Origin: Candidatus Saccharimonadota bacterium
Lineage (GTDB): Bacteria > Patescibacteriota > Saccharimonadia > Saccharimonadales > Saccharimonadaceae
Assembly (NCBI GenBank): GCA_020160975.1
Contig: JAIUPJ010000001.1
Location: 360,001-392,000, forward strand
Length of the DNA stretch: 32,000 nt
Direction: 5' to 3'
Part shown: in pieces, positions 5,903-27,325 of the stretch
Layout: each line of letters begins with the position of its first letter
Numbering within the stretch: position 1 is the stretch's first letter
The notes under the pieces: generated by a model
Databases searched by the model: none
What the model was told of the DNA's origin: nothing
The model's input: the letters and a program-made list of their open reading frames with translations, nothing else
Made by a program: the position numbers and the translations under genes

Positions 5903-7015
5903 TTATGGGGTACAGCCGTTTGCACTATGGTCTTGGAAATACACTGGCAGCGTGCTGACCGTCATTGTCTTGCATAGATTATTGGTTACATCTACCGTTG
6001 CACGCGGATAAAGAGAGTCAGCGGCGGGGTCAATCTTCTCCACGCGCGCTGAAACACGCCGAAAGACATCACTGGCTCGCCCAGTAGAATCGATTATCGG
6101 CTGGATATTGCTAAATTGGGTACCCGACGGCACGATCTGAAATGCCGAGGAATTGTAAAGGCTCGTCAAACGAAGATAGGCTTTACTACCACCTGCACCC
6201 CCTACTTGGCGAGGCAGTGTCAAACGAGCTTCGCAGTTGTAGCCATTATAGATAGGCAAGGTTCCACAAGCCACCGTCTTCGGAGCGAGCGTTCCACTCC
6301 GGCGCCCATCACTCGCAAATGCGTAGGCGTTTAACCCCCCACTCTTCGGCATAAGGTAAAGGGTGTGACCGTACCCATTGTTGTCGAAAACTGTCGGGTC
6401 GATTGGCGCAGTATCAAACTGAATTAGCTGGGTACGAAGCACTGCGGGTGTCGCATAGTTCCACCCCGCTAACGTCGGTAGCTTCACGTCTGTCAGGTTG
6501 CTCCCTAGCGCACTGCTCGATGCCTGTGGCACTCGCCAGCGTACAATGAGGTCTGTAAATCCACCCGTTGTCGTCAATGCTATCACTGTTGAGCTACCTG
6601 CAGCTAGCGAGGCTCCCTCATACGTAGGTGTGTTGCGGATGATCTTGAGGCAGGTATAGGCTTGTTCAAATGCCTGTCCAGTTACATCAGACGTACTCGT
6701 CTTGAGATAGACTTCACCATTTGTGGCAGCGACGAGCCCTGCAGCACTCGTCGTATCGCAGCGCATCGCATCGATCTTGTCACAGGCTGTTGTGTCACCA
6801 TTGTCACAGGCTGCCAGAAGGCGCTTACCATCTTCGACTCCCGCGAGCGCAGAATCGTATGCCCCTTGAGAGAGCTCGTTGTCATTCGTACGCGATACCT
6901 CGTTGATCATCAACTTCATAAAGCCAAGCGTTACCGTTACAAACAGCAAGACCGAGAACATCACCACGACAAGCGCCGTCACCCCTTGTTCATATTTTCT
7001 TATACGCTGGCTCAT
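5903..7015 (-). CDS. PilX-N-like pilus-associated protein (last gene of the pilus locus)
   Basis: 370 aa. The N-terminus (QGVTALVVVMFSVLLFVTVTLGF..EVSRTNDNELSQGAYDSALAGVEDG) resembles the PilX N-terminal domain pattern but has no G/FTxxE cleavage motif. The extracellular part is Cys-rich. Its start overlaps the stop of the upstream minor pilin. Confidence 0.5.
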   Translation of the reverse strand: MSQRIRKYEQGVTALVVVMFSVLLFVTVTLGFMKLMINEVSRTNDNELSQGAYDSALAGVEDGKRLLAACDNGDTTACDKIDAMRCDTTSAAGLVAATNGEVYLKTSTSDVTGQAFEQAYTCLKIIRNTPTYEGASLAAGSSTVIALTTTGGFTDLIVRWRVPQASSSALGSNLTDVKLPTLAGWNYATPAVLRTQLIQFDTAPIDPTVFDNNGYGHTLYLMPKSGGLNAYAFASDGRRSGTLAPKTVACGTLPIYNGYNCEARLTLPRQVGGAGGSKAYLRLTSLYNSSAFQIVPSGTQFSNIQPIIDSTGRASDVFRRVSARVEKIDPAADSLYPRATVDVTNNLCKTMTVSTLPVYFQDHSANGCTP

Positions 7016-7728
7016 AGCCCCCCTCCTGCCCGAACAATCGTATCGAATTCAACAACACTACAGTAATCAAAGTTCGCCGTATTGTCAGTCGGTGGACGGC
7101 ACTGATAGCCACTTGCAGGGTCAAGCGTTGTCGTATCGGGATCATTTGTCCCCATAGTCATATGCAGCGAGTACAGCGCCTTGCCATTACCGCTCGGGTC
7201 TTGCTGGACAAGCTTGACCGCAGCATCATACACAGCCAGCGCTCGTCCATCCGCACCGAGGAGCTCAGTCGACTCCATATCAGCACGGATTGTCATGGGC
7301 AACTTGCCGCTCATATCCGGCGTACAGAGATAGGCGCCGTTATCAATGACACGTCGAAAGACAACAGTCTTGTTATCGATATCGGTAATCTTCTGACTGA
7401 TCGCAACCGTCGAATCATTGATAAGATTCGCTGTATTCCAGACATAGCTCACCGCACCTGTACAAACTCTTCCGGCATATTTCCCTGACGTGCCAAGCTG
7501 ATTTGGCGTCAGAATCTTGTCGCTTGTAGCCGCGCTAAAATCTCTCCGGAGGCCATCAACCAGTTCACGACTGGCTTGATTGACCGTTTTGTACGTCTCG
7601 CCTTTTGCATACAACTTTCCCGCTTGAAGGGTAATGAATATAATAGCAAGCAGCAGAATCGACATAAATGCCATAGCGAGTGTCAATTCAACCAGGGTGA
7701 ACCCTCGTTGTGCACGATTAGCGATCAT
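7012..7728 (-). CDS. Prepilin-type minor pilin (PilW/FimT-like position)
   Basis: The N-terminus MIANRAQRG/FTLVELTLAMAFMSILLLAIIF is a class III signal peptide, with Phe at +1 and Glu at +5. Confidence 0.75.
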   Translation of the reverse strand: MIANRAQRGFTLVELTLAMAFMSILLLAIIFITLQAGKLYAKGETYKTVNQASRELVDGLRRDFSAATSDKILTPNQLGTSGKYAGRVCTGAVSYVWNTANLINDSTVAISQKITDIDNKTVVFRRVIDNGAYLCTPDMSGKLPMTIRADMESTELLGADGRALAVYDAAVKLVQQDPSGNGKALYSLHMTMGTNDPDTTTLDPASGYQCRPPTDNTANFDYCSVVEFDTIVRAGGGL

Positions 7729-8347
7729 AGACCCTCACAATCGTTCCAACTGTCATTGGCACAGCGAGTCCCACACTATCCCAGCAGCCGTGAATATAGA
7801 AATCATAGGCATCAAGCACTGTTCGTAATGCAGGGTTTGGTGTGGCATTTTCTGCTTTGACAACTTGCACCCATATGCCGTAGGCTTTTGGTGTCGCGGC
7901 GCCATACGTCACCTGCGCATAGGTACTGGCAGCTGTATAGTTAGCGGCATCAGCTGGTTTTATATCAAATCCTGCTCCACTTGGTTTTGGTACCACGAAG
8001 AACCCATTTGCTCCACCAGAGGAAAGCTGTCCTACGCTCGGACATGGGCCTGACAATGGCAACGGTCCCCCAGCTGCAGTCACGAGCCTGCCAGTCGATC
8101 CTGCAACACTTTTGTCGCCAACCATTGTCGTCCACGCAGAGTCACCTGACGCCTGAATATAACGAATAATCTCTGCTTGCGAATCAATTTGTTGCCTCAC
8201 GAGGCTTTTTTCGAGACTTCGCTGCGCCATAGCCACTCCTTGGTTCAAGATAGTGAGGCAGCTGACTGCAGCGAGTGAAAAGATAGCAAATGCCAACATC
8301 AGCTCGATCAGTGTATCCCCGCGGTGAAGCCTTGCCATGGTTAGCAT
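7718..8347 (-). CDS. Prepilin-like minor pilin with an atypical +1 residue
   Basis: The N-terminus is M(LTM)ARLHRG/DTLIELMLAFAIFSLAAVS. Gly at -1 and Glu at +5 are conserved, but +1 is Asp rather than Phe or Met. Confidence 0.6.
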   Translation of the reverse strand: MLTMARLHRGDTLIELMLAFAIFSLAAVSCLTILNQGVAMAQRSLEKSLVRQQIDSQAEIIRYIQASGDSAWTTMVGDKSVAGSTGRLVTAAGGPLPLSGPCPSVGQLSSGGANGFFVVPKPSGAGFDIKPADAANYTAASTYAQVTYGAATPKAYGIWVQVVKAENATPNPALRTVLDAYDFYIHGCWDSVGLAVPMTVGTIVRVYDR

Positions 8348-9078
8348 GTCCCTTCAGGTACAAAATTAACACCGCCGCTATTGACCGCATTTGCTTGCAG
8401 GACCACGCCAATCGCCTTTGTGCCTGTCAGCCCAGCCGTATCGACGCACATCAAATAGTCGGTGCTGGTTGTCCCCGAGGCGATTACCTCGCTTGGCTTC
8501 TTGTCCGCTTCACGCAGCACATAGGTGTGAACCAATCCAGAAGTTGGCATGCGAACTATCACGATACTAAATCGAAGTGGCGTATTGTTTTCGCTTCCTG
8601 CGCCAACGAGCCGCGAAGACCACCCCATGTCGTATGTCTCCTTCTTGGGATCTGCCACAAGTCCCGCATCGGAGAGGATCTGCGTATCGGTATCGGAGTC
8701 ATTGCGCGGCAGTGTCAGCGCATCGACAGTGGCATAGAGCTTCTGATAGCCAACGGTCTGACCGTCGGCCGAACTTGTCACGAGCTGTCCGACAACCGTG
8801 CAGCCGTCGCTCGCCCCTGCAATCGGCGAGCTGGTGGTGCCACCGCCGACGATGATACCCGATGCGCCGCAGACGTCTGTCTGTGGACGTGAGTTATTGA
8901 CATTCACCGTATCGTTGTATTGCCCTCTCATAAAATCAGCAAACGAACTCACCGCATCGTGATAACGTTCGCGGTTGAGCCCAACCGAAACACCCGTCAA
9001 AAGTGTTGCCATAATCACGCCAGTGATTGCCAGAAACAGCATCACTTCAATAACCGTGAACCCCCTATGCCTATCCAT
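8341..9078 (-). CDS. Prepilin-type minor pilin
   Basis: The N-terminus is MDRHRG/FTVIEVMLFLAITGVIMATLL (245 aa). Confidence 0.75.
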   Translation of the reverse strand: MDRHRGFTVIEVMLFLAITGVIMATLLTGVSVGLNRERYHDAVSSFADFMRGQYNDTVNVNNSRPQTDVCGASGIIVGGGTTSSPIAGASDGCTVVGQLVTSSADGQTVGYQKLYATVDALTLPRNDSDTDTQILSDAGLVADPKKETYDMGWSSRLVGAGSENNTPLRFSIVIVRMPTSGLVHTYVLREADKKPSEVIASGTTSTDYLMCVDTAGLTGTKAIGVVLQANAVNSGGVNFVPEGTC

Positions 9079-14665: not shown

Positions 14666-14899
14666 CTAGTTGCTCGTGGCACCACCACCGATAACCGTTT
14701 GCACTGTTGGATTGATTGCACCAGAATTAAACACCTTGGCGTTTGGCGTCTCTACAGCCGTCTCTATTGGTGTCGCCACCGGTACTTTTACGCCTTTTGG
14801 ATCAACCTTGAGGAATGACAGTTGGTCGCCGACAAAAAACGCAATCAACGCTGACACGCTAGCGATCAGAATAATCATTGCAATATCATTTTTTTTCAT
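14666..14899 (-). CDS. Small single-pass membrane protein of the pilus locus (function unknown)
   Basis: 77 aa. An N-terminal TM (IAMIILIASVSALIAFFVG) is followed by a Pro/Val/Thr-rich tail. Its start overlaps the pilO-like stop by 14 nt, and it ends 9 nt before pilB. Confidence 0.5.
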   Translation of the reverse strand: MKKNDIAMIILIASVSALIAFFVGDQLSFLKVDPKGVKVPVATPIETAVETPNAKVFNSGAINPTVQTVIGGGATSN

Positions 14900-15581: not shown

Positions 15582-16306
15582 TAGTTTGCCTCCTTTGCAT
15601 CTTTTGCTTTTTCGCTAAACAGCGAGTCTGGAACACGCGTACGAGAATCAGTCACGTCCACTTTGCTGTTAGGCGTTACGATGCGGACATTACTGAGCGT
15701 ATTGTCAAACAGTCCGTCAGGATATGTGAACGAAATCGTGAAGCGAAGCACGCGCGCACCATCGGAGCCCTCTCCGTAACTAGTCTGACTAATCACTACC
15801 TGATCAGTCAGTGCAACCGACTGCGTTTCGTCATCGGTAGTGCTCTCAACTTTTGTATTGAGTATAAGCTTGCGGAATGTTTCGGTCGCAGCATAGCCGT
15901 TACTCGCCATACCCTCAATCGTCACCGTCTTTGCGGTTGGGTCGAGTTTGACGCTTGAGTATTTCATATCGTTTGGTGCAGTTGGGTTGATCGCCCCGAT
16001 CACATCGAGCAGACGCGAATCGATCGATTTGTTGTCATGAAGCCTCGTAATTTCCTTGAGTTGTCGCTGAATTGTCAAGGCATTGTCAATGTTTTCGGTA
16101 CCTTGCAGCTTGGCGAACTGCTGTTTGATTTGGTCGCGAGAATAGCCCTCATGCACCGACTGTGCAACCACCAAAAGTGCCAGCAACACAACAATTGCTC
16201 CCGCGGCAATCGCGGCAAAGATCGACAGCGAAATTGCTGTATTGCGCATTTTCTGCGCTTTGATCATTTCTTGCTTGACGTCAGGTATCAGGTTAATTTC
16301 AATCAT
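15581..16306 (-). CDS. pilN: PilN (fimbrial assembly) protein
   Basis: The N-terminus MIEINLIPDVKQE matches the INLLP-type motif and is followed by a single TM. The gene overlaps pilM by 4 nt. Confidence 0.75.
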   Translation of the reverse strand: MIEINLIPDVKQEMIKAQKMRNTAISLSIFAAIAAGAIVVLLALLVVAQSVHEGYSRDQIKQQFAKLQGTENIDNALTIQRQLKEITRLHDNKSIDSRLLDVIGAINPTAPNDMKYSSVKLDPTAKTVTIEGMASNGYAATETFRKLILNTKVESTTDDETQSVALTDQVVISQTSYGEGSDGARVLRFTISFTYPDGLFDNTLSNVRIVTPNSKVDVTDSRTRVPDSLFSEKAKDAKEAN

Positions 16307-17358
16307 ACCGTTCCGCCTCTTTTTGCGAGCCCGATGGCTGTCGCAAACTCAGTTGCGACTGGACCGAGCTGACGCTGATCTTCCTGCGACAATTGAATAC
16401 CTTGCCAAGGATTGGCAACATGCGCCGGCTTGCCAGTCTTGCTGGCTAGATATGCGTCCAGCTGTGGCACCGCAGAAGCAAACCCAGCGATCAGTACCGC
16501 TTGAATCGCCACGCTCGGATAGCGTGTCTCAAAGAACTTAATCGATTTTGAAATCTCCGCTGCAAAACTATCCAGCGACACTTCGAGTGCACGCAATACT
16601 TGCCCCTCGAGCCGATCGGGTGCGAGCCCAAATTTCAAGATAAATTGTCGGGCTTGATCCTCTTGGACATTGAGATTGGCTACTGTTGCTTTGACAAACG
16701 ATGCGAGGCCAGTCGGAATGGTTCGCACCAGTCGCGGAGTATCGCCATACGTGATGGCGATATCGGTCGAATGCTCTCCCATATCAAGCTGCACGACCGC
16801 CCCCGACTGACCAGGAGTAGTCAAGGCGCGCACCATGGCGATTGGGTCTGGTTCGGCTGCAATTACATTGAGACCAAGTGATTCAACTAGCTCTAAGCGC
16901 GCTTCACTGTATTCCCTCGCTACACTCGATAGCAGGACTTCTTGCTGGTTCTGCGCCCGCAGTGATGGGCCGAGAAGCGCCCAATCAACCTTCGCTTCAT
17001 CAACTGCCATCGGAATATACTGATCAATCTGATATTTCATGGTTGCCTTGAGCTCAGACTCGTTGGTATTTGGCACATCAACCACGGTGGTAAAAGTCTT
17101 GCTCGATGGCAAACCGATCACAACATTTTTGCTGCGAATACCGCTCTGACCAACCGCTGTCATGATCACTTCGGCAACCTTGCGGCGCGACTCTTCTGAG
17201 TCGCTACTGGTTAATCTGCTATCTATTGGCGCATAGCCATAATGATCAAGACTCCAGCCCGACCCTGATTTGCGCAGCTGCACCACTCGAATCGCATTCG
17301 TCCCAATATCTAGCGCGAAAAAGTCGCCCATCCCTTTTAGCATACTCATCTTATCCAT
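16303..17358 (-). CDS. pilM: PilM actin-like ATPase of the pilus alignment complex
   Basis: 351 aa. It carries the ..FALDIGTNAIRVVQL.. phosphate-1 motif, ..LDMGEHSTDIAI.. and the overall FtsA/PilM pattern. Confidence 0.85.
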   Translation of the reverse strand: MDKMSMLKGMGDFFALDIGTNAIRVVQLRKSGSGWSLDHYGYAPIDSRLTSSDSEESRRKVAEVIMTAVGQSGIRSKNVVIGLPSSKTFTTVVDVPNTNESELKATMKYQIDQYIPMAVDEAKVDWALLGPSLRAQNQQEVLLSSVAREYSEARLELVESLGLNVIAAEPDPIAMVRALTTPGQSGAVVQLDMGEHSTDIAITYGDTPRLVRTIPTGLASFVKATVANLNVQEDQARQFILKFGLAPDRLEGQVLRALEVSLDSFAAEISKSIKFFETRYPSVAIQAVLIAGFASAVPQLDAYLASKTGKPAHVANPWQGIQLSQEDQRQLGPVATEFATAIGLAKRGGTV

Positions 17359-17403
17359 TAGTATACATAACTGTTACCGATTAGCGCAAGCGTTTTCAAA
17401 TGA

Positions 17404-20400
17404 TTAATATCGTGGAGGCAGCTCAGTGATCGCCCGCGTCGTCCATGTTCCGTTAAGCTCAGACAAGCGCCGCGACCAGATATAGGCATCTCCGCGCAAA
17501 TTCAAGGTCTCTGCCGCCCCTCCAGGAGTCGTTTTGTCGGCGCCGGCGGTACGACGCAGGAGAACATGACTAGCGGTCAACGCTCCGTTCACCTGTAGCG
17601 GCTGGTTGCAATCATTGATAGTTAGTTGTCCTGGGCCATTTGAACAGGTGTTAATTGTGCCATTTGGCGCAATCAACCACGCATCGACACGCCCAACTCC
17701 CGCTTGAATATTGATATCTGGCGCCACAATCACTAATTGGTTCATGTTTTTGTCATCAGACGAGGTGTCGTACGTCATATTGGTTGCCGTAATTGTCACT
17801 GTGCCTGTAGCTTGAATTACCGTACTTCTCTTCATAAGTTGATTTGCATTCACAAATGCATTGTCGATTGTCACGGCTCCACTTGGTATTATGTTGACAC
17901 CCTTGAGACCTGGACGAGACAAATACCCTCCAATGTTCGGAATCACACCCATCTGGCTGGCTGGGGCAAAGCTACCATAAGGCATCGTTACATTGGCGTG
18001 GGTCAGCTGGCTCCAGGATTGCTGCTGATCGCTTGCACTCCCCGCAGCGAGTCCGGAGGCCGAAGCAATGCTACGTATCGCATCTGGTGCATACATGCTG
18101 TACTCTCCCCATGAACCATAGGTCAGCTGCTTGGATGTATTCATCGATCCAGACAGACTAATATCTTCGATCATGAGCCCGGTGTGCGTGACTGTTGATT
18201 GCACCCACAACTCAAGCACGTTATCGGCACCTGGCTTAAAACTCTGACATCCTGTGTTGGCATTTTCAAAAGAGAATGGTAGCGTGCCAGCCCAGTAACC
18301 AGACCGCAACCATTGATCCGACCGTACGACCGGTACCCAATCGACATAGTTTCCGGCTGTCGGAAAATTGCGACCTGTCGCGAGCAACTGACATCCGTTT
18401 ACAAATGCTTTTACCCTATTGTCAATCGCACCCGCAATGGTTAGCTTAACGGTTGATAAGTCTGCATCTGCCGGCACAGTAAATTTATCTTTTAGTTTAA
18501 ATTTATAGATGTTGGCATTGTCATAACCACCACCAAGCGCCGAGGGGTCGCGGCACCGACTATCATTGTAGTTCTGACCGAAGACGTTTTGCCCAATCCA
18601 GCTCGCTGAAGTAGAGGTTCGACCCCACACATACGTTCCCACATCGCCAGGGCTAGCATTGCCCACGATCGCTCTTCGCGTAATTTTGATCCCGGCCTTG
18701 TTGCTGCTCTCAACCACGACGTACGCCGGTGTTTCACGGTCCATCGGCACTCTGGATGCACCGTCAAAGGAATATTGGCAGGTTTGCCCGATCGCACTAG
18801 AGCCATTTGGCCGAACTACCCCACTGATAGTCCAGTGTTGGTCGTTGTATTCGGGTTTGTAGAGATCTTTGTCAGATGCACCTCCATCATATGTAGCTGC
18901 TATTTTGCTTCCGCCGGCACCTACCCCAGTGCGCCATAACCCATAGGCTGAACTACCACTGAAGCTCCCTGTTGTCGAACCACCTTCGCGTGTACTAATC
19001 TTCCCTGTTATCCCAGAAGCAGCTGCGAGACCAGAGGTGATCGCCGAACCAACTCGCCCATCGTTCCCCCATATCTGAACTGTTGGCGACCTGCCAACCA
19101 GCACACAACTTGTCAGCCAGTCCGTCACCATCACCCTCACCCCAAGAGTAGGGGTCGAGATACGCCAGGCTGCACACACTCTACCGCCTTTTTGCATATC
19201 AAGCACACTAGTATTCATCGTAATTTCCTGGACACTGCCATCGGCCCTCACTGTGGCTACAGATGCACCCCCCGAGCCAAAAGGGCTACCCGTTGAAGAC
19301 GTATCAAAGTAACGACTGTCTCCCGTTGCTGGGTCATACGTTCTATCGGTTGCAGATTTTTCATACCAAATCCAGGCACTGTACTCTACCCTTGTGTCAA
19401 TCGCCGGCTGTGTATCATTTTTCACCTTAAACCGCGCCGTAAAACTTGACTCGTCAGTCGCGGTTGATCCGTCGGTCGGAGTGGTTTCAAGAATTGGCGT
19501 AATACCCCCGCGAGCCATTACCCGCACACACGACCAGGGGCTGGCACCACTGCCACCAGTTTGGTCTTTTGGCGCATATTCCAGCCGATGACAGAACGTA
19601 CTGCCGACATCCTCATTGCGAATCGTATAAGGGCCATAACATTCACCGGAGCCAGGAGGGTTAACTGTCGTCGTACCGCTACTCGAAAATGTGTACGCCG
19701 AGCCAGCAGGATTATTCTGTCGATCGCTGCCTGCAACACCAGCAATTTGGCAAGCATAGGTATAATCAATTGACCGCGACGAAAATAAGCCCGCTGTTTG
19801 GGTTGTTGTTAGATTATGTCTCCACAGAACGGTATCTCCCGGATAAACCACTGCATCGGCGGCGGCAACACTGCTCGAACCGTTGACATACGCATTCGAT
19901 ACAGCGCTATTGGTATATTTCGGTGCTGGTGGCGTACGTATCACCGTCACCTCGACTGGTTGTGCGTAGCACGATCCGCTCACTGATGTCCCATTACTAC
20001 TCATACAGCGGTACAAGTCGATAGTTATTGTCTCCTGTGCTGGAGAAGTAGCGTTATTCGTTGCGAGGCCAGTAACGTTAAGAGTCGCGGCTAAAGTGTT
20101 TCCCTGACTTGAGTAATAATATGGTGCAGGGCTAGGCAATCTACCTCGATACAATGAGGTTGATGAGAGTCCTGTCAACCTCCAGCCATTGCTTCCCCGC
20201 GGTGCGATATTAATTGCGTATGTTGGTCCGGGAAAGCCGTACATGCACGCATATACCGACCCTGCAATCTGTACCGGCACAGAATTTTGACCATCAGCCA
20301 CGACCACATTCTGTGTATAATAACTTGCTCCGCTGTTCGCAAACCAGATCGCTCCGCGTGCCCCATACGACGTCCCGGCAGCATAATTGCACATCCACCA

Positions 20401-20574
20401 TGCAGAGTTTTCTGCATTATTGAACCCGTAGTTGTTGTGATTTCTTGCAGGATCGCCCACTGCAGCAGAGGCAACGTCGCCGTGCAATAGCGATGCCGTC
20501 CCAACAGCAAGAGACAGCGCCATGACAGTGATGAGTTTTGAGAGAGCCGTCAATCGCATGCTAGCCCTGTACAT
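17404..20574 (-). CDS. Large secreted protein, function unknown; candidate pilus-associated adhesin
   Basis: 1056 aa. The signal peptide is MRLTALSKLITVMALSLAVGTASLLHGDVASA. A segment around residues 690-800 (..LTIAGAIDNRVKAFVNGCQLL..VLELWVQS..) looks like a PA14/lectin-type jelly-roll. The protein contains many Cys residues. The gene ends 45 nt upstream of pilM on the same strand. Confidence 0.6.
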   Translation of the reverse strand: MYRASMRLTALSKLITVMALSLAVGTASLLHGDVASAAVGDPARNHNNYGFNNAENSAWWMCNYAAGTSYGARGAIWFANSGASYYTQNVVVADGQNSVPVQIAGSVYACMYGFPGPTYAINIAPRGSNGWRLTGLSSTSLYRGRLPSPAPYYYSSQGNTLAATLNVTGLATNNATSPAQETITIDLYRCMSSNGTSVSGSCYAQPVEVTVIRTPPAPKYTNSAVSNAYVNGSSSVAAADAVVYPGDTVLWRHNLTTTQTAGLFSSRSIDYTYACQIAGVAGSDRQNNPAGSAYTFSSSGTTTVNPPGSGECYGPYTIRNEDVGSTFCHRLEYAPKDQTGGSGASPWSCVRVMARGGITPILETTPTDGSTATDESSFTARFKVKNDTQPAIDTRVEYSAWIWYEKSATDRTYDPATGDSRYFDTSSTGSPFGSGGASVATVRADGSVQEITMNTSVLDMQKGGRVCAAWRISTPTLGVRVMVTDWLTSCVLVGRSPTVQIWGNDGRVGSAITSGLAAASGITGKISTREGGSTTGSFSGSSAYGLWRTGVGAGGSKIAATYDGGASDKDLYKPEYNDQHWTISGVVRPNGSSAIGQTCQYSFDGASRVPMDRETPAYVVVESSNKAGIKITRRAIVGNASPGDVGTYVWGRTSTSASWIGQNVFGQNYNDSRCRDPSALGGGYDNANIYKFKLKDKFTVPADADLSTVKLTIAGAIDNRVKAFVNGCQLLATGRNFPTAGNYVDWVPVVRSDQWLRSGYWAGTLPFSFENANTGCQSFKPGADNVLELWVQSTVTHTGLMIEDISLSGSMNTSKQLTYGSWGEYSMYAPDAIRSIASASGLAAGSASDQQQSWSQLTHANVTMPYGSFAPASQMGVIPNIGGYLSRPGLKGVNIIPSGAVTIDNAFVNANQLMKRSTVIQATGTVTITATNMTYDTSSDDKNMNQLVIVAPDINIQAGVGRVDAWLIAPNGTINTCSNGPGQLTINDCNQPLQVNGALTASHVLLRRTAGADKTTPGGAAETLNLRGDAYIWSRRLSELNGTWTTRAITELPPRY

Positions 20575-21052
20575 CTCCAGACTTCGCTGAATCAGCCGGT
20601 GTAGACTGGATCATCTTCATCTCATTCTCAATACGCACAACACTGGACAGATCGGCCAATTCACCATGAGGGTAGTTGCCCTTACTGAGTAGATCCTTGT
20701 AGGTTCCAAAAGCATTGGCAAATTCATCGCTTTTGCCGGTGCGCATCGTATCTCGCACCACGATATACATACAGGTAGCATTCTGGGTATAGTCTTTGCG
20801 GCTTTTGATCTGAGTCGCCAGCTCAGAGACCTTTGCGGTGTTTGAGAGACCGGCGTTGTACTGCGCCACGTCAGCCGTTGTGCAAACTGGTTGCGTGGAG
20901 CTTGCGAGCACATAGGATTCGCTCGGCTTTTTTATCCCTGCGTACACCCATCCCGTTGCATACAACATTGCTCCAACCGCAATCAGTATGAGGGGAAATC
21001 CTATCACAATTTTCGCCGCAGCAGAGCCATGTCGCCTATCATCTATACCCAC
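20561..21052 (-). CDS. N-terminally anchored hypothetical protein (first gene of the pilus transcription unit)
   Basis: 163 aa, with a GTG start preceded by a GGAGA RBS and a single TM (IVIGFPLILIAVGAMLYATGWVYAG). Its stop overlaps the start of the 1056-aa gene by 14 nt. Confidence 0.5.
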   Translation of the reverse strand: MGIDDRRHGSAAAKIVIGFPLILIAVGAMLYATGWVYAGIKKPSESYVLASSTQPVCTTADVAQYNAGLSNTAKVSELATQIKSRKDYTQNATCMYIVVRDTMRTGKSDEFANAFGTYKDLLSKGNYPHGELADLSSVVRIENEMKMIQSTPADSAKSGDVQG

Positions 21053-21176
21053 TACTTATATCTCCTATTCTACTTATGGTTAGTATAACAGGATTGCGCT
21101 CCCAAAGAAAAGAACTATTCCCTACTCACCCATCGCTCGTACAACGAGCTCGGTATCTGCTATACTACTAACAATT

Positions 21177-21337
21177 ATGAGTTTAAGTATAGGCATATTA
21201 AAGTTCCAGCACAATTGCCTTTCGAACTAAAATTGCGTATCCCGAAGACTGACCACGGTGGTCGAGGCTATTCTAACGAGTACATTGCGAATATCGAAGA
21301 AAATCTATATCTCACCCGCACCGAATAACCAGCTCCC
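21177..21337 (+). pseudogene. Decayed copy of the ychF 5' end (codons 1 to about 60)
   Basis: ATG AGT TTA AGT ATA GGC ATA encodes MSLSIGI, identical to the first 7 residues of the intact YchF at 27603 but using different synonymous codons. Later blocks also align: attgcgaatatcgaagaaaat versus tttgcgacaatcgagccaaat (15/20), and ..ccagctcc versus ..acagctcc. The copy carries indels, frameshifts and an early stop. Similarity ends exactly at the left 18-bp repeat. Confidence 0.6.
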
Positions 21338-21355
21338 TGCTTCTCTCCTGCTATT
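21338..21355 (+). repeat. Left copy of the 18-bp direct repeat TGCTTCTCTCCTGCTATT
   Basis: An exact match to 27308..27325. It overlaps the stop codon of the cytochrome-b5-like gene. Confidence 0.9.
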
Positions 21356-21752
21356 CTTTAGCAAGTATTCCGATTTTGAGCTTAGCAAGTTGTTCGCTTG
21401 CCGCCTCGCTATGAGGGGTGCCTGAACCAACTGGCTGCCCCTCTTGAGTCTGACGTTTTGTAAATAAGGTTGTTGCATCCGTGCCACACGCCCGAAGTAT
21501 TTCATCACCCCCCGGATGACGATTAATAAACTTGGTCAAATCATATACGTCTCCAGATATAATTGCCCAGCAGTCTTCTTTTGAATCATGCTGTGCGACC
21601 TCGTTCATGGTGAATGTTTTTGCTTGTTCGGGTGCGTCTTGAGATGGTGTGTGGGGTTGGCGATTGACTACAAGCACCCAGATACCTGCTCCGATAGCGA
21701 CAACTAGGAATACGGCGATTACAGGTAATATGACGTCGCTCTTCTTACGCAT
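21351..21752 (-). CDS. Membrane-anchored cytochrome b5-like heme-binding domain protein
   Basis: 133 aa. An N-terminal TM is followed by ..FTMNEVAQHDSKEDCWAIISGDVYDLTKFINRHPGGDEIL.., which contains the HPGG motif. A later ..TPHSEA.. offers a candidate second His ligand. Confidence 0.7.
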   Translation of the reverse strand: MRKKSDVILPVIAVFLVVAIGAGIWVLVVNRQPHTPSQDAPEQAKTFTMNEVAQHDSKEDCWAIISGDVYDLTKFINRHPGGDEILRACGTDATTLFTKRQTQEGQPVGSGTPHSEAASEQLAKLKIGILAKE

Positions 21753-21788
21753 GAGTAACTCCTTTGTTCAGTATTGATGTCACTACTC

Positions 21789-22451
21789 CTAGTATCCCCA
21801 TTCTTGCTGCCATTGCTTCATCTGTTCGATTTCTTTTGTTTGAGCGGCTATAACCTCTCTCGCCAAGTCTTTGAGTTCTTGGTGATTGGCATTTGTTTCA
21901 GCGTAGCGAGACATCTCAATAGCTTGTTCATGATGAAGAATCATTTGTTTAAGAAACTCCTTATCGTATTCCTCGCCCTTGAGGTCTTTTAGTTTGTTCA
22001 TCATCTCGACCATATCACCGCCCATATCCATGCCAGCTCCACTATGACTCATGTGACCGCCACTCATCGTCTCTTTATACCCCCACTCTTTTTGCCACTC
22101 TCGCATTTTCATCACTTCTTGTCCTTGCGTCTGTATGATGTTGGTGGAAAGAGTGCGGATTTCTTCGTGGGCTGTAACGGCTCCAGCCTGCTCCGCCATA
22201 TTGAGAGCGCCGTCATGATGAGCTAGCATGTCAGCAATAAAGGCTTCGTCAAACTCGTCGCCGTAGAGAGTGGCGTATTTACTATCTGTGGTTTTCTCGT
22301 CATTAATAGTTTGCTGGGTCGTCTTCATGTCTTGAGCATCAGAAGTCTTTTCGGGTTTAATCGAAAAGACCCCAAAGTACCAAATGGCGGCCGCAAAAGC
22401 CACCAACACGATGATGATAACGGCAAACAGCTTGTTCTTCGTTATTTTCAT
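21789..22451 (-). CDS. DUF305 family protein (paralog a), membrane-anchored, with a Met/His-rich linker
   Basis: There are two DUF305 half-repeats (FIADMLAHHDGALNMAE and FLKQMILHHEQAIEMSR). They are separated by the linker MSGGHMSHSGAGMDMGGDMVEMM. Confidence 0.8.
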   Translation of the reverse strand: MKITKNKLFAVIIIVLVAFAAAIWYFGVFSIKPEKTSDAQDMKTTQQTINDEKTTDSKYATLYGDEFDEAFIADMLAHHDGALNMAEQAGAVTAHEEIRTLSTNIIQTQGQEVMKMREWQKEWGYKETMSGGHMSHSGAGMDMGGDMVEMMNKLKDLKGEEYDKEFLKQMILHHEQAIEMSRYAETNANHQELKDLAREVIAAQTKEIEQMKQWQQEWGY

Positions 22452-23077
22452 TACTCTCCCTTTTGTAAGTCTTCTAATCTTTTAATATCGTTCTTGTAGC
22501 TGGTGAGGCTTTTATTTTTGAATTCAATCAGCTTGCCATATTGAAGATCGCTAACCACACCGCTGTCCTGAATTGCGCCCTCGTGGTGTGCAATCATAAG
22601 ACTAATGAAAAGCCTGTCTGCGTCACTACCGGTTGCAGCTTTAAGCGTTGCCATGTTTGTTGCTGACGCGAGGCCAAGAAAAGTAGGGTACATGTCATGA
22701 CCGTCCATTTCAGGAAAATCAGACAGATTCGTGTATGTTTCGTTCCACTCGCCCAGCCAGCTCTTATATTGATCTTCGGCGCTTTTTTGCTCCTGTTGTA
22801 TCTTTGTAGCTATTTCACGGACAACTTGGTTGGTTGATACCGCTAAGACGGCCTCTGTCATCTCTATAGCTTGTTGGTTGTGGACAATCATCTTTCGAGA
22901 GAAGTCTACATCAGAAAAATCATGTTTGTTTGGATCGGGTTGATTTTGATTGTTACTTACAGGAGGCGTTGTTTTTGGTGGAGCTGAAACTGACCGGTTT
23001 TGAAAAACCAACCAGCCTAGCACGACCGCACCAACTACCGATGCTGCAATCAGTGTTACTAACGTCTTTTTCATCAC
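22451..23077 (-). CDS. DUF305 family protein (paralog b), divergent
   Basis: The half-repeats are FSRKMIVHNQQAIEMTE (HH replaced by HN) and LFISLMIAHHEGAIQDS. It has no Met-rich linker. An N-terminal TM is present. Confidence 0.7.
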   Translation of the reverse strand: MMKKTLVTLIAASVVGAVVLGWLVFQNRSVSAPPKTTPPVSNNQNQPDPNKHDFSDVDFSRKMIVHNQQAIEMTEAVLAVSTNQVVREIATKIQQEQKSAEDQYKSWLGEWNETYTNLSDFPEMDGHDMYPTFLGLASATNMATLKAATGSDADRLFISLMIAHHEGAIQDSGVVSDLQYGKLIEFKNKSLTSYKNDIKRLEDLQKGE

Positions 23078-23088
23078 TAGACCTCGCT

Positions 23089-23607
23089 CTACCTTGCAAG
23101 AGGCTCTGGGCTTTTCCCCAGATTCCTCATCACATACTCTTCTATTTTCTTTTGATCATAGCTTGCTAATGACTCACTTCTGCGCCACGAACTCAGCTCG
23201 ATAGGCGATGTATTAGCCTGACGGGGTGCAAGTACAATCTTCGTTGGCTTAAACTCTGAATTCGAGAATGGAGCGGACAGAAGACCCTTAAGCTTCTCAA
23301 TTTGATCTTGTGGCAAATCAGGTTGGTACGAGACATAGATTCCGCCATGCTCCATATTGTGTATCACTTGGTCGTCACGAACTTCAGTATCGTAAACGCC
23401 CCATGCAACGGGATTAGCATGCGAGCCAGAAGTAGGCGGTTGGTCACCGCCATACTCCTTGCTGCTCACGTGTTCACGGCCATGATCGGCTTGTTCAATG
23501 CCTGGACGTGGTGGTTCTGGTGGCCTATTTATCTTTCCGATTACCAAAGCCCCGCCAAACGCAATGACGATTGCCCCTATAACAATGGGGAATGGCTTAA
23601 CTTTCAT
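23089..23607 (-). CDS. DUF3105 domain protein, membrane-anchored
   Basis: The segment ..YGGDQPPTSGSHANPVAWGVYDTEVRDDQVIHNMEHGGIYVSYQPDLP.. matches the DUF3105 pattern as I remember it (PP.SG.H...WG.Y...H.LEHG). Confidence 0.75.
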   Translation of the reverse strand: MKVKPFPIVIGAIVIAFGGALVIGKINRPPEPPRPGIEQADHGREHVSSKEYGGDQPPTSGSHANPVAWGVYDTEVRDDQVIHNMEHGGIYVSYQPDLPQDQIEKLKGLLSAPFSNSEFKPTKIVLAPRQANTSPIELSSWRRSESLASYDQKKIEEYVMRNLGKSPEPLAR

Positions 23608-24250
23608 AACCCCAGTCTTTTTGCCATTGTTTCATCTGCTTGATTTCTTTTGTCTGTGCGGTGACGATTGCTTTTGTCAGGTCTTTCACTTCCTGATGTT
23701 CGGCGTTCTTTTCACCTGGTGCAGCCATATCAAGCGCTCCTTGGTGGTGCATGATCATTTGCTCGATAAAAGCTTTGTCAAACTCATCACCCGTCTTTCC
23801 CTCCAGGGCGCTGTTCATACCAGCCATCTCATCCATCATACCCATAGCACTGTGATCCATCATGTTGTCGGCACTTGTCGATGGATAACCCCATTCTTTT
23901 TGCCAAGCCGTCATCTGACTAATCTCACCCTCTTGAGCCGAGATGATGTCGTTCGCCATATCTTTCAGCTCTTGGTGCTTGGCATTTTTCTGTGCTAGCT
24001 TCGCCATATCAACAGCACCTTGGTGGTGGGCTATCATATTGGCGATGAAATTACGGTCATAGGTTTCGCCAGTCATGGCAGCATATTGCTTGTATGTATC
24101 TGACGTTGTATCGACTTGTGCCATTTCTGATAGTGGCTGGACTGAAACGCTTCGGAATAGTTGGTCACGGAACACAAAAGTCGCAACACCCACTACAACT
24201 ACAAAAGCGACAAGACCTACAATTAGCATTTGTTTATTCTTTTTATTCAT
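23597..24250 (-). CDS. DUF305 family protein (paralog c), membrane-anchored, with a Met-rich linker
   Basis: The half-repeats are FIANMIAHHQGAVDMAK and FIEQMIMHHQGALDMAA, joined by the linker NMMDHSAMGMMDEMAGMN. An AGGAG RBS is present. Confidence 0.8.
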   Translation of the reverse strand: MNKKNKQMLIVGLVAFVVVVGVATFVFRDQLFRSVSVQPLSEMAQVDTTSDTYKQYAAMTGETYDRNFIANMIAHHQGAVDMAKLAQKNAKHQELKDMANDIISAQEGEISQMTAWQKEWGYPSTSADNMMDHSAMGMMDEMAGMNSALEGKTGDEFDKAFIEQMIMHHQGALDMAAPGEKNAEHQEVKDLTKAIVTAQTKEIKQMKQWQKDWGYES

Positions 24251-24297
24251 AAAGTACTCCTAATTTAGCTATTTAGTAAAACGTAAACAGCTAAATC

Positions 24298-24672
24298 TCA
24301 AGCACGAAAGACGGTCAAACCAATGTAGGCGGGTACGCCACCAGGGGGTGGTTCTCTATCCCCGGCAGCTCTTGTCTCTTGACTATGCTTTTCTTCAAGG
24401 GCCAAAAGGCGTGATGTCTGGAACTGAACATAAAATGGAGGCTGCGGCTTGTCATCCTCGTCTTTCTCGGTACCTTTGATGAACTCGTCTTTGTGAAGAG
24501 TTGCCGTCGTACAAGCAGTAAAACAATTCGATGAACTTACTTGATGAGATGCACCCCCCATTGAGTGCCCCATATTCATCGTCTGCACAGCAGCCGCATG
24601 TATACCTAACGACAGCACACTGAGTACTGAAAGCATGAATACGGAAACAACTCCTTGGAACACTCGTTTCAT
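24298..24672 (-). CDS. Secreted hypothetical protein with an N-terminal Met/His motif
   Basis: 124 aa. The signal peptide (VVSVFMLSVLSVLSLGIHAAA) is followed by VQTMNMGHSMGGASH, a CxxxC-like stretch (CFTAC), and an acidic and Pro-rich tail. Confidence 0.5.
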   Translation of the reverse strand: MKRVFQGVVSVFMLSVLSVLSLGIHAAAVQTMNMGHSMGGASHQVSSSNCFTACTTATLHKDEFIKGTEKDEDDKPQPPFYVQFQTSRLLALEEKHSQETRAAGDREPPPGGVPAYIGLTVFRA

Positions 24673-24711
24673 ATCTCTATTTTACCGTAATTTACCCCAA
24701 CCGTCATATTT

Positions 24712-24771
24712 CTAGTAGTTTGCTTCGCTGTAATGATGATGGTGATGTTCGTGTTCGTCGTGGTTGTGCAT
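24712..24771 (-). CDS. 19-aa His-rich micro-ORF (MHNHDEHEHHHHHYSEANY)
   Basis: The sequence is not in the ORF track. On the minus strand, the TAA stop of the ATPase is followed directly by GGAGGTAGT and then ATG CAC AAC CAC GAC GAA CAC GAA CAT CAC CAT CAT CAT TAC AGC GAA GCA AAC TAC TAG. Nine of its 19 residues are His. Confidence 0.4.
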   Translation of the reverse strand: MHNHDEHEHHHHHYSEANY

Positions 24772-24780
24772 ACTACCTCC

Positions 24781-26919
24781 TTATAATTTTACCCGTCGTA
24801 AGAACTGTGCGTTGATAGCAACGATAATGGTCGAGAGCGACATTAGAACAGCTCCTAGTGCTGGCGAGAGGACAAAACCAAGTACCGAGGTAACACCAGC
24901 AGCTAGTGGAATCGCCAGAGCATTATAACCAGTCGCCCAAGCAAGGTTTTGAAGCATCTTGCTGTAGGTACGTTTTGAAAGCGTCACGATTTTCGCCACA
25001 CCTCGTGGGTCGCTGCTTGCGAGCACGATTCCAGCCGACTCAATCGCCACATCCGTACCCGCACCAATCGCAATGCCGATATTAGCTTGTGTCAGTGCCG
25101 GTGCATCATTTACTCCATCACCGACCATCGCTACCCGGCTGCCGTCGGCCTGTAACTTCTTGACCGTCTCGGCTTTGTTTTCGGGCAAGACTTCGGCGAA
25201 GTACTCTTTTATACCAAGTTCTTTTGCTACCCATGCCGCCACACCCTTGCTATCACCCGTCAGCATAGCAACTCGCTTACCCATACTGTGAAGTGTTGCC
25301 ACAGCTTCCTTTGATTCCTCACGAATAACATCGGCAAGTAGAATAGCTCCGAGTACCGTCTTATTTTCGATAACATACACGACAGTTTTTCCATCAGTTG
25401 AGGCTTCGCCTGTGGCTGTTTGCAGTTCATCGTCTAGTTCAATATCCAATTCTTCGAGTAATCTCGGCCCACCGACGTAGACGCTTTTTCCGTCAGCCTT
25501 GGCTCGTACACCACGACCAGAAAGTGCCGAAAAGTCAGTGGTGTGAGTTTCCGGCACATTTTGACCGTGTGCATACTGGAAAATCGCTTTCGCAATTGGG
25601 TGTTCTGATTCACGCTCAAGAGCAGCAGCAAGGCCAAGAACATGGTTCTTGTCTTTAGCAATGACATCAACCACACCCTGCTCACCCTTTGTCAGCGTAC
25701 CTGTCTTATCAAACAATACGACGTCGATATTGCGTGCCGCTTCGAGTGCCATTCGTTCACGCACCAGCAGCCCATTCTTTGCCGCTAGCGTCGTAGAGAT
25801 AGCCGTGACAAGTGGGATAGCCAAACCAAGAGCATGTGGACAAGCAATCACTAACACCGTTACGACTCGCTCAAAAATAAACCCAGCCGACTCACCAGCC
25901 AGCCACCAACCAATAAGCGTCAGTAAGGCTGCACCGATAGCAATAAATGTAAGATAAAAAGCCGCTTTGTCTGCGAGTACTTGTGTTTTTGACTTGCTAG
26001 TCTGAGCGTCTTCAACCAGCTTCATGATGCCAGCAAGTGCCGTATCGCTGCCGACTTTCGTGACTTCAATTGTCAGTGCTCCATTAGCGTTAATTGTACC
26101 CCCAATTACCTCGGCTCCAATCGCTTTCTTTACCGGCTTTGATTCACCCGTAAGCATTGACTCGTTTATCTCGGATTCACCTTTGATGACAGTCCCGTCT
26201 ACAGGTACTTGAGTACCCGGGCGAACAAGTATCATATCACCGACTTTGAGCTGGCTGACAGAGACAGTGCGGCTTTTCCCATGTTCGAGTAACTCCGCCT
26301 CATCGGGTAGTAACTTGGCAAGTTCGTTTAACGCACCTTGTGCACTTTCCACCGACGCCATTTCTAGCCAGTGACCAAGCAACATAATCGTCACTAATGT
26401 GGCCAGTTCCCACCAGAAGTCCATACCACTAACGAGCTTGAGCGTGACGAGGCTGCTATAAATAAACGCAACGGTAATCGCCATTGAAATAAGCGTCATC
26501 ATGCCAGGCTGCTTAGCTGCAAGCTCGGCCTTGGCACTCTTTAGGAATACTAAGCCGCCATAGAAAAAGATAATCGCACCAAAAATAGCTGGAATATATT
26601 CGCTGCCAGGAAACATCAGCTCAAAGCCTAGCCAGCCCTGAACGGTGTGCGAAAACAACAGCGTCGGGATAGTCAGCAGAAGACCCAGCCAAAACTTTTG
26701 CTTGAACATATTAGGGCTATGTCCAGCGTGCTTGTCATGGTCGTGTTCATGGGACGGCTGTACCTTTGTCTTTTCTAAAGCCATATGGCACTTCGGACAC
26801 ATGCCTGGCTTGTCTGATGTTACATCAGGGTGCATTGGGCAAGCATACTGCATATCTGACTGTGTGAGCATGGCGTCGTGGCTCATACCTTGGTGATGGT
26901 GATGTTCGTGATGATTCAT
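24781..26919 (-). CDS. copB: Heavy-metal (copper-type) P1B ATPase with a CPH transmembrane motif and a His-rich N-terminus
   Basis: 712 aa. Motifs present are TGES, DKTGTLT, SEHPIAKAI, GDGVNDAPAL and the TM motif VIACPHALGL. The N-terminus is MNHHEHHHHQGMSHD, followed by CPMHPDVTSDKPGMCPKCHM and SHEHDHDKHAGH. Confidence 0.9.
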   Translation of the reverse strand: MNHHEHHHHQGMSHDAMLTQSDMQYACPMHPDVTSDKPGMCPKCHMALEKTKVQPSHEHDHDKHAGHSPNMFKQKFWLGLLLTIPTLLFSHTVQGWLGFELMFPGSEYIPAIFGAIIFFYGGLVFLKSAKAELAAKQPGMMTLISMAITVAFIYSSLVTLKLVSGMDFWWELATLVTIMLLGHWLEMASVESAQGALNELAKLLPDEAELLEHGKSRTVSVSQLKVGDMILVRPGTQVPVDGTVIKGESEINESMLTGESKPVKKAIGAEVIGGTINANGALTIEVTKVGSDTALAGIMKLVEDAQTSKSKTQVLADKAAFYLTFIAIGAALLTLIGWWLAGESAGFIFERVVTVLVIACPHALGLAIPLVTAISTTLAAKNGLLVRERMALEAARNIDVVLFDKTGTLTKGEQGVVDVIAKDKNHVLGLAAALERESEHPIAKAIFQYAHGQNVPETHTTDFSALSGRGVRAKADGKSVYVGGPRLLEELDIELDDELQTATGEASTDGKTVVYVIENKTVLGAILLADVIREESKEAVATLHSMGKRVAMLTGDSKGVAAWVAKELGIKEYFAEVLPENKAETVKKLQADGSRVAMVGDGVNDAPALTQANIGIAIGAGTDVAIESAGIVLASSDPRGVAKIVTLSKRTYSKMLQNLAWATGYNALAIPLAAGVTSVLGFVLSPALGAVLMSLSTIIVAINAQFLRRVKL

Positions 26920-27200
26920 TATTTACCCCTCACATTGTGTAGCTCGTATAGTTGTGATAGCTCGCTTAGTGCCTTCTCTTGTTGTTTTTCATCGCCAGAT
27001 GCCATCATTGCCTTAATATGTGTAGCGATATGGTTTTCAAGCACCAGCTTGTTGAGCGACGCCAGAGACTTCTGAATAGCAAGACTTTGCGTCAAAATAT
27101 CCATGCAATACACATCTCCATCAATCATTTTTTGCAAACCCTTGAACTGGCCTTCGATTATCTTGGACCTGTGTGTCGTTCTCTCTTTTACTGTCTTCAT
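26919..27200 (-). CDS. csoR: CsoR/RcnR-family metal-sensing transcriptional repressor
   Basis: 93 aa. The segment ..IIEGQFKGLQKMIDGDVYCMDILTQSLAIQKSL..LENHIATHI.. carries the family ligand positions Cys, His and then His where CsoR has Cys. The stop overlaps the ATPase ATG by 1 nt. Confidence 0.85.
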   Translation of the reverse strand: MKTVKERTTHRSKIIEGQFKGLQKMIDGDVYCMDILTQSLAIQKSLASLNKLVLENHIATHIKAMMASGDEKQQEKALSELSQLYELHNVRGK

Positions 27201-27203
27201 AGA

Positions 27204-27237
27204 TTCTATGATATACCCCCCTGGGGTATATTGTCAA
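27204..27237 (-). promoter_or_regulatory. Promoter with an embedded CsoR-type operator; probably produces a leaderless csoR transcript
   Basis: On the minus strand, TTGACA (27237..27232) is followed by an 18-nt spacer and TATCAT (27213..27208), then 7 nt and the ATG. The spacer is the palindrome ATATACCCC-nnn-GGGGTATAT (27211..27231). That is the G/C-tract-in-AT-arms architecture known for CsoR operators. There is no Shine-Dalgarno sequence before the ATG. Confidence 0.65.
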
Positions 27238-27307
27238 CAACGTAAACCATTCATGATTAGCCCATCAATAAACAGACTGGAGTACTATGTTTATGTTAGA
27301 ATTACCG

Positions 27308-27325
27308 TGCTTCTCTCCTGCTATT
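27308..27325 (+). repeat. Right copy of the 18-bp direct repeat TGCTTCTCTCCTGCTATT
   Basis: An exact match to 21338..21355. It lies 108 bp upstream of the csoR ATG. Confidence 0.9.

Follow-up and report, generated by a model that had tools for sequence, protein, structure and literature searches.

The window analyzed in this study, a 32,000-nucleotide (nt) stretch of Candidatus Saccharimonadota DNA (contig JAIUPJ010000001.1, positions 360,001 to 392,000), carries on its reverse strand two adjoining genes, the first for a small membrane-anchored protein, hereafter the partner, and the second for a large secreted protein, followed directly by pilM, with which the block of pilus machinery genes opens. 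With a probability of roughly 0.5, and judging from the sequences and their surroundings, we consider the large protein to be a pilus-linked modular host-contact protein. This reading is carried by the build of the protein, by the replacement of an internal cassette between near-identical strains and by the position of its relatives beside pilM across the class.

A word-indexed search with the large protein returned only 14 clusters, and a second word-indexed homologue search, queried with an alignment, added almost nothing. A profile built from the 14 clusters matched 4,726 representatives (50% identity, exhaustive library), of which 2,088 reached 1e-30. The original prediction, which had been made from the letters of the window without database searches, described the protein as an orphan. 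This description has to be given up, since the family profile matches 93 of the 101 genomes and 88 of the 95 genera in the taxonomic family to which the window belongs, as well as 107 of the 151 genomes of the class. Outside its own family the match is confined to the rear part of the protein, about 130 profile positions. The features by which the family is recognized are all present in the window, namely the rear motifs VQVWGxD..., SWxEYG and VDAWL(I/V)A...TC together with the [ED]LPP[RY][YFL] end, a location directly upstream of a same-strand pilM, and a preceding gene for a small membrane-anchored protein. The family expands in some genomes, with 6-10 profile matches in G015, G014 and G092, and tandem copies of the large gene occur in several; a repertoire can be built in this way inside one genome of about 1 Mb.

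The prediction had also recognized no characterized family, and here the searches agree with it. Pfam (at E<=1), NCBIfam and PHROGs gave nothing on the whole large protein, and no match came from sequence profile searches of the PDB, for which the family as a whole, the insert and the rear module served as queries. When 59 rear modules were compared with Pfam and NCBIfam, only scattered sub-threshold matches that differed from member to member were obtained, among them pectate-lyase-like models in 2/59 and right-handed β-helix models in 1/59.

An AlphaFold2 model of the large protein, run with a 90-sequence alignment (mean predicted local distance difference test score, pLDDT, 79.5; predicted template modeling score 0.56), gives the order of its parts. 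A signal helix (aa, amino acids, 4-28, followed by a low-confidence linker) is succeeded by three β-sandwiches (aa about 73-213, 219-335 and 348-494), the VQIWGNDGRVGS motif, a β-rich stretch (aa 526-823) and a rear region (aa 832-1040) of short, regularly spaced strands with one helix, behind which the tail is disordered. The signal peptide and the many cysteines noted in the prediction are borne out: the N-terminus has a hydrophobic, signal-like segment, and Cys occurs 16 times. Together G, A, S and T account for 41% of the residues. The class III signal motif of pilins (N_methyl, PF07963) is absent from it in the Pfam search and was recognized in four further genes at the locus. Foldseek, with the whole chain, returned only generic immunoglobulin (Ig)/FN3 arrays, the Ig-array stalks of adhesins and fibers.

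Conservation is distributed very unevenly along the chain. Among the 90 sequences, conserved columns are confined to aa 463-510 and 820-1055, and the invariant or nearly invariant ones cluster in the C-terminal module, which is also the sole part for which matches extend to other orders of the class. G463, C467 and C490 are nearly invariant in the third Ig-like domain, as are P497, G503 and D505 around the VQIWGNDGRVGS motif; the charged residues that are invariant or nearly so in the rear module are D505, E824, D964, R1008 and E1022. All 90 sequences end in [ED]LPP[RY][YFL]. The C-terminal module is modeled at pLDDT 80-96, with its last 11 residues below 50, and the secondary-structure pattern of the model suggests a solenoid-like rear module. 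The front parts are unrelated between family members, and a Pfam VWA domain is found in 8/77. A build like that of a modular adhesin, with a variable front and a conserved rear domain, is supported by these observations.

The conserved rear module is split in the window protein by an insert, and inserts of 279-431 aa at this point occur in only 13 of the 90 members, this one included, while in the other 77 a linker of about 24 aa joins the two conserved stretches. The rear half of the insert (aa about 689-815) is a predicted β-sandwich and contains the segment that had been called lectin- or PA14-like. The PA14 assignment fails, as six insert sequences searched with a limit as loose as E<=10 yielded no match to PF07691. 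Sub-threshold Pfam matches to BetaGal_ABD2 (three of the six members, E 0.02) and Glyco_hydro_2_N2 (E 0.04) were obtained instead, and on these galactose-binding-type β-domain matches (E about 0.02-0.04) the insert is possibly carbohydrate-binding.

A view of how such modules are exchanged comes from a metagenome contig (L119) that represents a sister strain and covers the same locus, including a neighboring copper island. The flanks of the two contigs share 95-99% nt identity, and positions 18124-19060 of the window cannot be aligned by blastn. Within the large gene, DNA identity is 99-100% for residues 1-355, about 65% for residues 356-505, 40-57%, with gaps, for residues 506-805, about 77% in a transition at residues 806-855, and again 97-100% for residues 856-1056; taken over 50 aa at a time, identity falls from 1.00 to 0.25-0.76 and returns to 0.98-1.00. 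The two N-terminal β-sandwiches are 100% identical in amino acids to those of the sister strain's protein (P0002), and the third Ig-like domain, in which the variable stretch begins, is 65% identical in amino acids and about 65% in nucleotides. The insert of the window protein is only 39% identical to that of the otherwise identical sister strain, and its nearest relatives are the inserts of two proteins (P0004 and P0005; 61% and 58% aa identity) whose N-termini are unrelated. Such a pattern of identity indicates that the internal module is replaced by recombination, rather than being the product of gradual divergence.

Two specific sources of the variation were set aside. A silent donor cassette within the genome, a single contig of 971,550 bp, is ruled out by the presence of the large gene as one copy only, and a diversity-generating retroelement was dropped given that the divergence amounts to 45-60% at all bases over 1.4 kb and is not adenine-specific. 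The copper-resistance island 5' of the pair (window 21053-27325; L119 1-8138) is about 95-97% identical in the sister strain; being common to both strains, it was present before the cassette exchange in the large gene.

The link to the pilus genes is strong and old. Among 20 loci from different genera, a homologue of the large gene ends just 5' of a same-strand pilM in 19, and it does so too in most of another 78 loci, drawn from the genome collection, at a distance of 31-100 nt. When the coordinates of family-profile and PilM matches were compared, a rear-module match was also located a few hundred bases upstream of pilM in at least 46 genomes from other families of the class. PilM itself occurs in 150/151 genomes of the class, which indicates that pili are universal there, with the large-protein family merely very common.

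The prediction placed the pair at the head of the pilus operon. Its position directly 5' of pilM on the same strand stands, but pilM appears to have a conserved promoter of its own. The pattern TTGNNN-N16-19-TANNNT-N6-14-ATG was matched in 66 of 81 unique related loci; among these, the spacer measures 18 nt in 55, the -10 box reads TATAAT in 52 and TATACT in 14, and in 56 exactly 10 nt lie between this box and the ATG, as they do in the window, where the -10 box lies 10 nt before ATG 17349. Across GCTTATGTATAAT the columns are conserved at 50-99%, most of them at 70-99%. We infer from this conservation that the element before pilM is a promoter, by which the pilus genes would be independent of the pair for their transcription. 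The gap of 45 nt that had been reported between the large gene and pilM was measured to ATG 17358 of the open reading frame (ORF) listing, which falls inside the conserved promoter spacer, and the start aligned in about 80 relatives is ATG 17349 (window 17347-17389). Only 10 nt separate this ATG from the -10 box, so that transcripts from the pilM promoter would have a very short leader or none. The same 10 nt contain a purine-rich stretch, a possible ribosome-binding site for transcripts that read through.

About 14 nt lie between the stop codon of the large gene and the -35 box, and no terminator-like site was found in them. With no room for a terminator, read-through from the pair into pilM seems likely. 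The pair has a promoter-like element of its own, in which the combination TATAMT-N0-16-CATAAG has its single match in the window, and TATACT or TATAAT together with CATAAG is found upstream of the partner gene in many relatives. A simple promoter scan missed both promoters because of the weak -35 boxes in this genome. The hexamer, in the form CATAAG(C/G), recurs from a few to about 12 nt 3' of the -10 box before partner genes of many genera (L041-L118) and stands just upstream of the -10 box instead in three loci; it may indicate the region where transcription starts or act as a site of regulation.

The partner consists of a short basic N-terminus, one membrane helix and an extracytoplasmic domain, about 120 aa long, in which two Cys residues occur, so that the prediction of an anchored protein is upheld; the basic N-termini before the membrane helix of the partners argue that the soluble domain lies outside the cell. 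It belongs to no Pfam, NCBIfam or PHROG family, and a database search with it returned only its own cluster. Its 14 BLAST neighbors (1e-17 to 1e-4) are all small ORFs that stand immediately before large-gene homologues, and weak matches were found in 9/100 genomes of the family, mostly adjoining the large gene. Among relatives, an ORF for a membrane-anchored protein of 160-230 aa adjoins the large gene or overlaps it, mostly by 4, 1 or 0 nt; this arrangement was found in 15 of 19 loci and for 55 of 74 gene copies. Tandem duplicates, and copies away from pilM, carry both genes, which makes the pairing tighter than the link to the pilus genes. The partner is probably a dedicated anchor or chaperone of the large protein.

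The partners of most relatives give weak TPR matches below the curated cut-offs, the best being TPR_16 (1e-6; 29 bits, where the cut-off is 32.7). With hhalign, neither the partner in the window nor its subfamily matched these TPR-like partners significantly. Homology of the two partner classes is not claimed, as the BLAST chain that links them may run through the membrane helix.

How the two genes meet depends on the start codon. The overlap of 14 nt given in the prediction exists with the first ATG of the large gene (20574), against which a GGAG lies directly. With the second, ATG 20559, a gap of 1 nt is left behind the stop codon of the partner. The latter is the start called in the sister contig and in P0001, the 1051-aa representative of this strain's cluster, and we regard it as the more likely start (1051 aa). 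Translational coupling of the two genes is compatible with either.

Host binding by Saccharibacteria is driven by type IV pili, and cell-wall glycans (rhamnose) matter for it (PMC11623550); in S. epibionticum, adhesins and type IV pili are essential (PMC10633639). Against this background we propose that the two genes form a self-contained Saccharibacteria surface-protein module that would have a functional link to the type IV pilus. In it the large protein, which is not a pilin, would be exported by Sec. Its rear module, with Ig-like and solenoid-like parts and the ELPPRY-COOH end, may provide a constant base on the cell envelope or the pilus apparatus, and the front domains, joined here by the insert of about 300 aa, would be exchangeable heads that contact the host bacterium. 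The partner, held by its N-terminal membrane helix with the soluble domain outside, could anchor or chaperone the large protein; in most relatives it is TPR-like. Exchange of heads by homologous recombination between strains and lineages would alter the adhesion target. The pair would be transcribed from its own promoter, probably reading into pilM, in addition to transcription from the promoter of pilM itself. We infer the location at the surface, the binding of a host, the role of the partner and any physical connection to the pilus from the sequence features described above.

Several observations weigh against a pilus-linked host-contact protein. No family member is detectable in 43 of the 150 class genomes that carry PilM, and some copies of the family sit away from any pilM. 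The conserved promoter of pilM means that linkage need not entail co-expression. The essential T4P1 locus of S. epibionticum, an oral strain in cultivation, starts with pilM directly after a divergent ychF, and the second pilM of this organism comes after pilC (PMC10633639, including its supplementary tables). An essential pilus locus without the pair argues that the pair is accessory and not core machinery, as pili work without it, and the published genetic models, in which the pilus loci lack the pair, do not cover it. In the partner of the window no TPR is detectable, and profile comparison with the TPR-like class gave nothing significant. The hint of carbohydrate binding consists of sub-threshold matches only, and an enzyme, too, could have invariant D, E and R residues such as those in the rear module.

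The host-contact reading can be sharpened into one in which the large protein is a true accessory adhesin of the pilus tip or shaft, a functional analogue of PilY1/PilC whose rear docks on the minor-pilin complex, specified by the far end of the operon, and whose heads are held at the tip. We hold this to be unlikely. It would accommodate the linkage to pilM across the class, the Sec export of a non-pilin as in PilY1, the VWA heads of some relatives and an operon that contains minor pilins as well as a pilin-like protein of 370 aa. The protein has, however, no homology to PilC/PilY1, its gene lies beside pilM and not with the minor pilin genes (7012-9078, about 8 kb from the large gene), paralogues with partners occur away from pilus loci, and the pili of S. 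epibionticum are essential without the pair.

PilY1 has a VWA-like N-terminal region. The original prediction had likened the position and architecture of the large protein to PilY1/PilC-type tip proteins and had seen no resemblance in sequence. That lack of resemblance is confirmed, the PF05567 PilC/PilY1 β-propeller having no match in the whole protein and none recurrent among the 59 rear modules. The gene position is not shared. Like PilY1 and PilC1-PilC2 of type IVa pili (Pseudomonas, Neisseria, Myxococcus), the protein is a large Sec-exported non-pilin encoded in a type IV pilus locus, with a variable front, ligand-binding in those systems, and a conserved rear thought to dock, and some of its relatives have VWA domains. 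In contrast to them, its predicted rear is solenoid-like and Ig-like, its gene adjoins pilM instead of belonging to a minor-pilin operon, it has a membrane-anchored partner, and whole modules are swapped between strains. Adhesive modules are also known from the modular pilins of Streptococcus sanguinis, of which PilB carries a VWA module and PilC a lectin module. These likewise belong to a monoderm type IV pilus system that displays VWA and lectin-like modules, but they are true pilins with a class III signal, whereas the signal of the window protein is of the Sec type and the N_methyl motif is missing from it. Membership of the large protein in the PilY1/PilC, secretin, pilin, PA14 and LPXTG families was rejected, the defining features of each being absent.

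Another explanation dispenses with the pilus altogether and takes the large protein as a general surface adhesin or envelope protein, tethered by its partner, whose adjacency to pilM is an inherited gene order between ychF and pilM that carries no mechanistic meaning. We would not favor it, and a modest chance is all that we allow it. The separate putative promoters of pilM and of the pair, the copies of the pair elsewhere in some genomes and its absence from the pilus loci of cultivated oral strains are what one would expect in that case. It explains less well why the same-strand adjacency has been kept across orders of the class despite an otherwise fluid gene order, and the short distance of about 14-30 nt from stop codon to promoter, which leaves no room for a terminator, makes read-through into pilM likely.

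Known adhesins and fibers offer partial parallels. LPXTG sortase-anchored adhesins of Gram-positive bacteria (MSCRAMM type) are built of Ig-like domains in series, with binding regions that vary and a conserved motif at the C-terminal end, as is the window protein, but the latter stops at ...TELPPRY with no hydrophobic segment or charged tail behind the motif. Since nothing follows ELPPRY, this end is not a sortase signal of known form. Phage tail fibers and their chaperones resemble the pair in having a constant attachment part, mosaic binding modules that close relatives swap by recombination and a small adjacent helper gene, and Foldseek against viral models did return tail and fiber proteins, via generic Ig/FN3 arrays only. 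They differ in that the window gene is chromosomal, stands at a fixed locus, has no PHROG homology and encodes its conserved part at the C-terminus.

It is very improbable that the pair is an envelope passage or assembly factor for the pilus of a cell without a secretin, comparable to a pilotin-secretin pair, with the anchored TPR-like protein aiding the β-rich exported one in building a collar through the wall. PilF and PilW are TPR pilotins. As with PilF/PilW/Tgl and PilQ, most relatives combine a small TPR-type membrane protein with a large exported β-rich protein encoded next to pilMNO; the conserved C-terminal and variable N-terminal parts recall secretins, and the locus has neither a secretin nor PilP according to a Pfam scan of its proteins. 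The large protein, however, gave no Pfam match to the secretin domain (PF00263). The partner has, as read from its sequence, no lipobox Cys, being held by a membrane helix instead, and no TPR match was detected in it. Moreover, a hypervariable and often multi-copy protein, with strain-level exchange of cassettes, VWA heads in some relatives and as many as ten copies in one genome, would suit an exposed ligand-binder and not a conduit, and the pili of S. epibionticum work without the pair.

Hardly more credible is a rear module acting as an enzyme, for instance a β-helix polysaccharide lyase or hydrolase on the wall of the host or of the cell itself with the heads as targeting modules, since the invariant or nearly invariant charged residues and the sporadic pectate-lyase-like (2/59) and right-handed β-helix (1/59) matches that would favor it stand against the lack of anything significant in the Pfam, NCBIfam and PDB sequence searches and the variation of these matches from member to member.

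Downstream of the pair, the genes on the same strand follow in the order pilM, PilN-like, PilO-like, a 77-aa ORF, pilB, pilT, pilC, a pilin gene and pilD, after which three genes for minor pilins and one for a protein of 370 aa complete the pilus block. The 77-aa ORF (14666-14899, reverse strand), which has an N-terminal membrane helix and overlaps the 3' end of the PilO-like gene, is matched in the sister contig by a called gene of equal size and position. Its equivalent in S. epibionticum, SEML1_0107 (228 nt), was scored as essential in transposon sequencing (PMC10633639 Table S1). The 370-aa gene (5903-7015, reverse strand), the last of the pilus block, has no Pfam match here; its S. epibionticum counterpart, SEML1_0116, carries a structure-based annotation as a pilin-like N-terminus joined to a galactose-binding-like domain, and is essential (PMC10633639 Table S2). 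The product of this gene is a second candidate adhesive component at the same locus. The coordinates of the features of the pair and of pilM are collected in the table.

Table. Features of the gene pair and of pilM; positions are those of the window.
Feature	Position	Strand	Basis or remark
Pair promoter-like element	21073-21090	-	Extended -10 TGtTATACT 21090-21082, then CATAAG 21078-21073
Shine-Dalgarno AGGAG	21062-21066	-	Read from sequence, 9 nt 5' of partner GTG
Partner gene	20561-21052	-	ORF, 163 aa, GTG start
Partner membrane helix	20939-21013	-	About aa 14-38
Large secreted protein gene	17404-20574	-	ORF, 1056 aa counted from ATG 20574
Sec-type signal peptide	20464-20574	-	About aa 1-37; cleavage between ASA and A judged by eye
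Two N-terminal β-sandwich domains	19510-20436	-	aa about 47-355; AlphaFold2 secondary structure and pLDDT
Third Ig-like β-sandwich	19087-19509	-	aa 356-496; pLDDT 80-94
Family motif VQIWGNDGRVGS	19045-19080	-	aa 499-510; first element of the conserved rear module
Strain-variable cassette	18085-19509	-	aa about 356-830; replaced between near-identical strains
Inserted module, about 300 aa	18130-19029	-	aa 516-815; splits the conserved rear module
Conserved C-terminal module	17407-18129	-	aa 816-1056; short regularly spaced β-strands and terminal helix
ELPPRY-COOH end	17407-17424	-	Last residues of the large protein
Putative σ70-type pilM promoter	17360-17389	-	-35 TTGCGC 17389-17384; 18-nt spacer; -10 TATACT 17365-17360
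pilM	16303-17358 as ORF; start probably 17349	-	PF11104 6e-42 and start alignment with relatives

On how ultrasmall epibionts of the candidate phyla radiation choose a bacterial host and grip it, the published genetics have so far dealt with the pilins of two oral strains, both of which lack the pair at their pilus loci. For the larger environmental part of the group, the pair offers a concrete locus for testing host recognition, as the family has thousands of representatives, carries no name, is modular, is linked to pilM class-wide and recombines visibly between near-identical strains. The conserved promoter of pilM corrects the operon picture and provides a defined element for expression work. 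As a tentative and rather improbable extension, the large protein may be a host-range determinant of environmental Saccharibacteria that combines a new solenoid-type docking domain, a free ELPPRY tail, partner-aided mounting on the type IV pilus or the envelope and recombining glycan-binding cassettes. If this were true, the host specificity of an epibiont would become readable and testable from one locus, and its cassettes would be traded between strains much as phages trade their receptor-binding modules.

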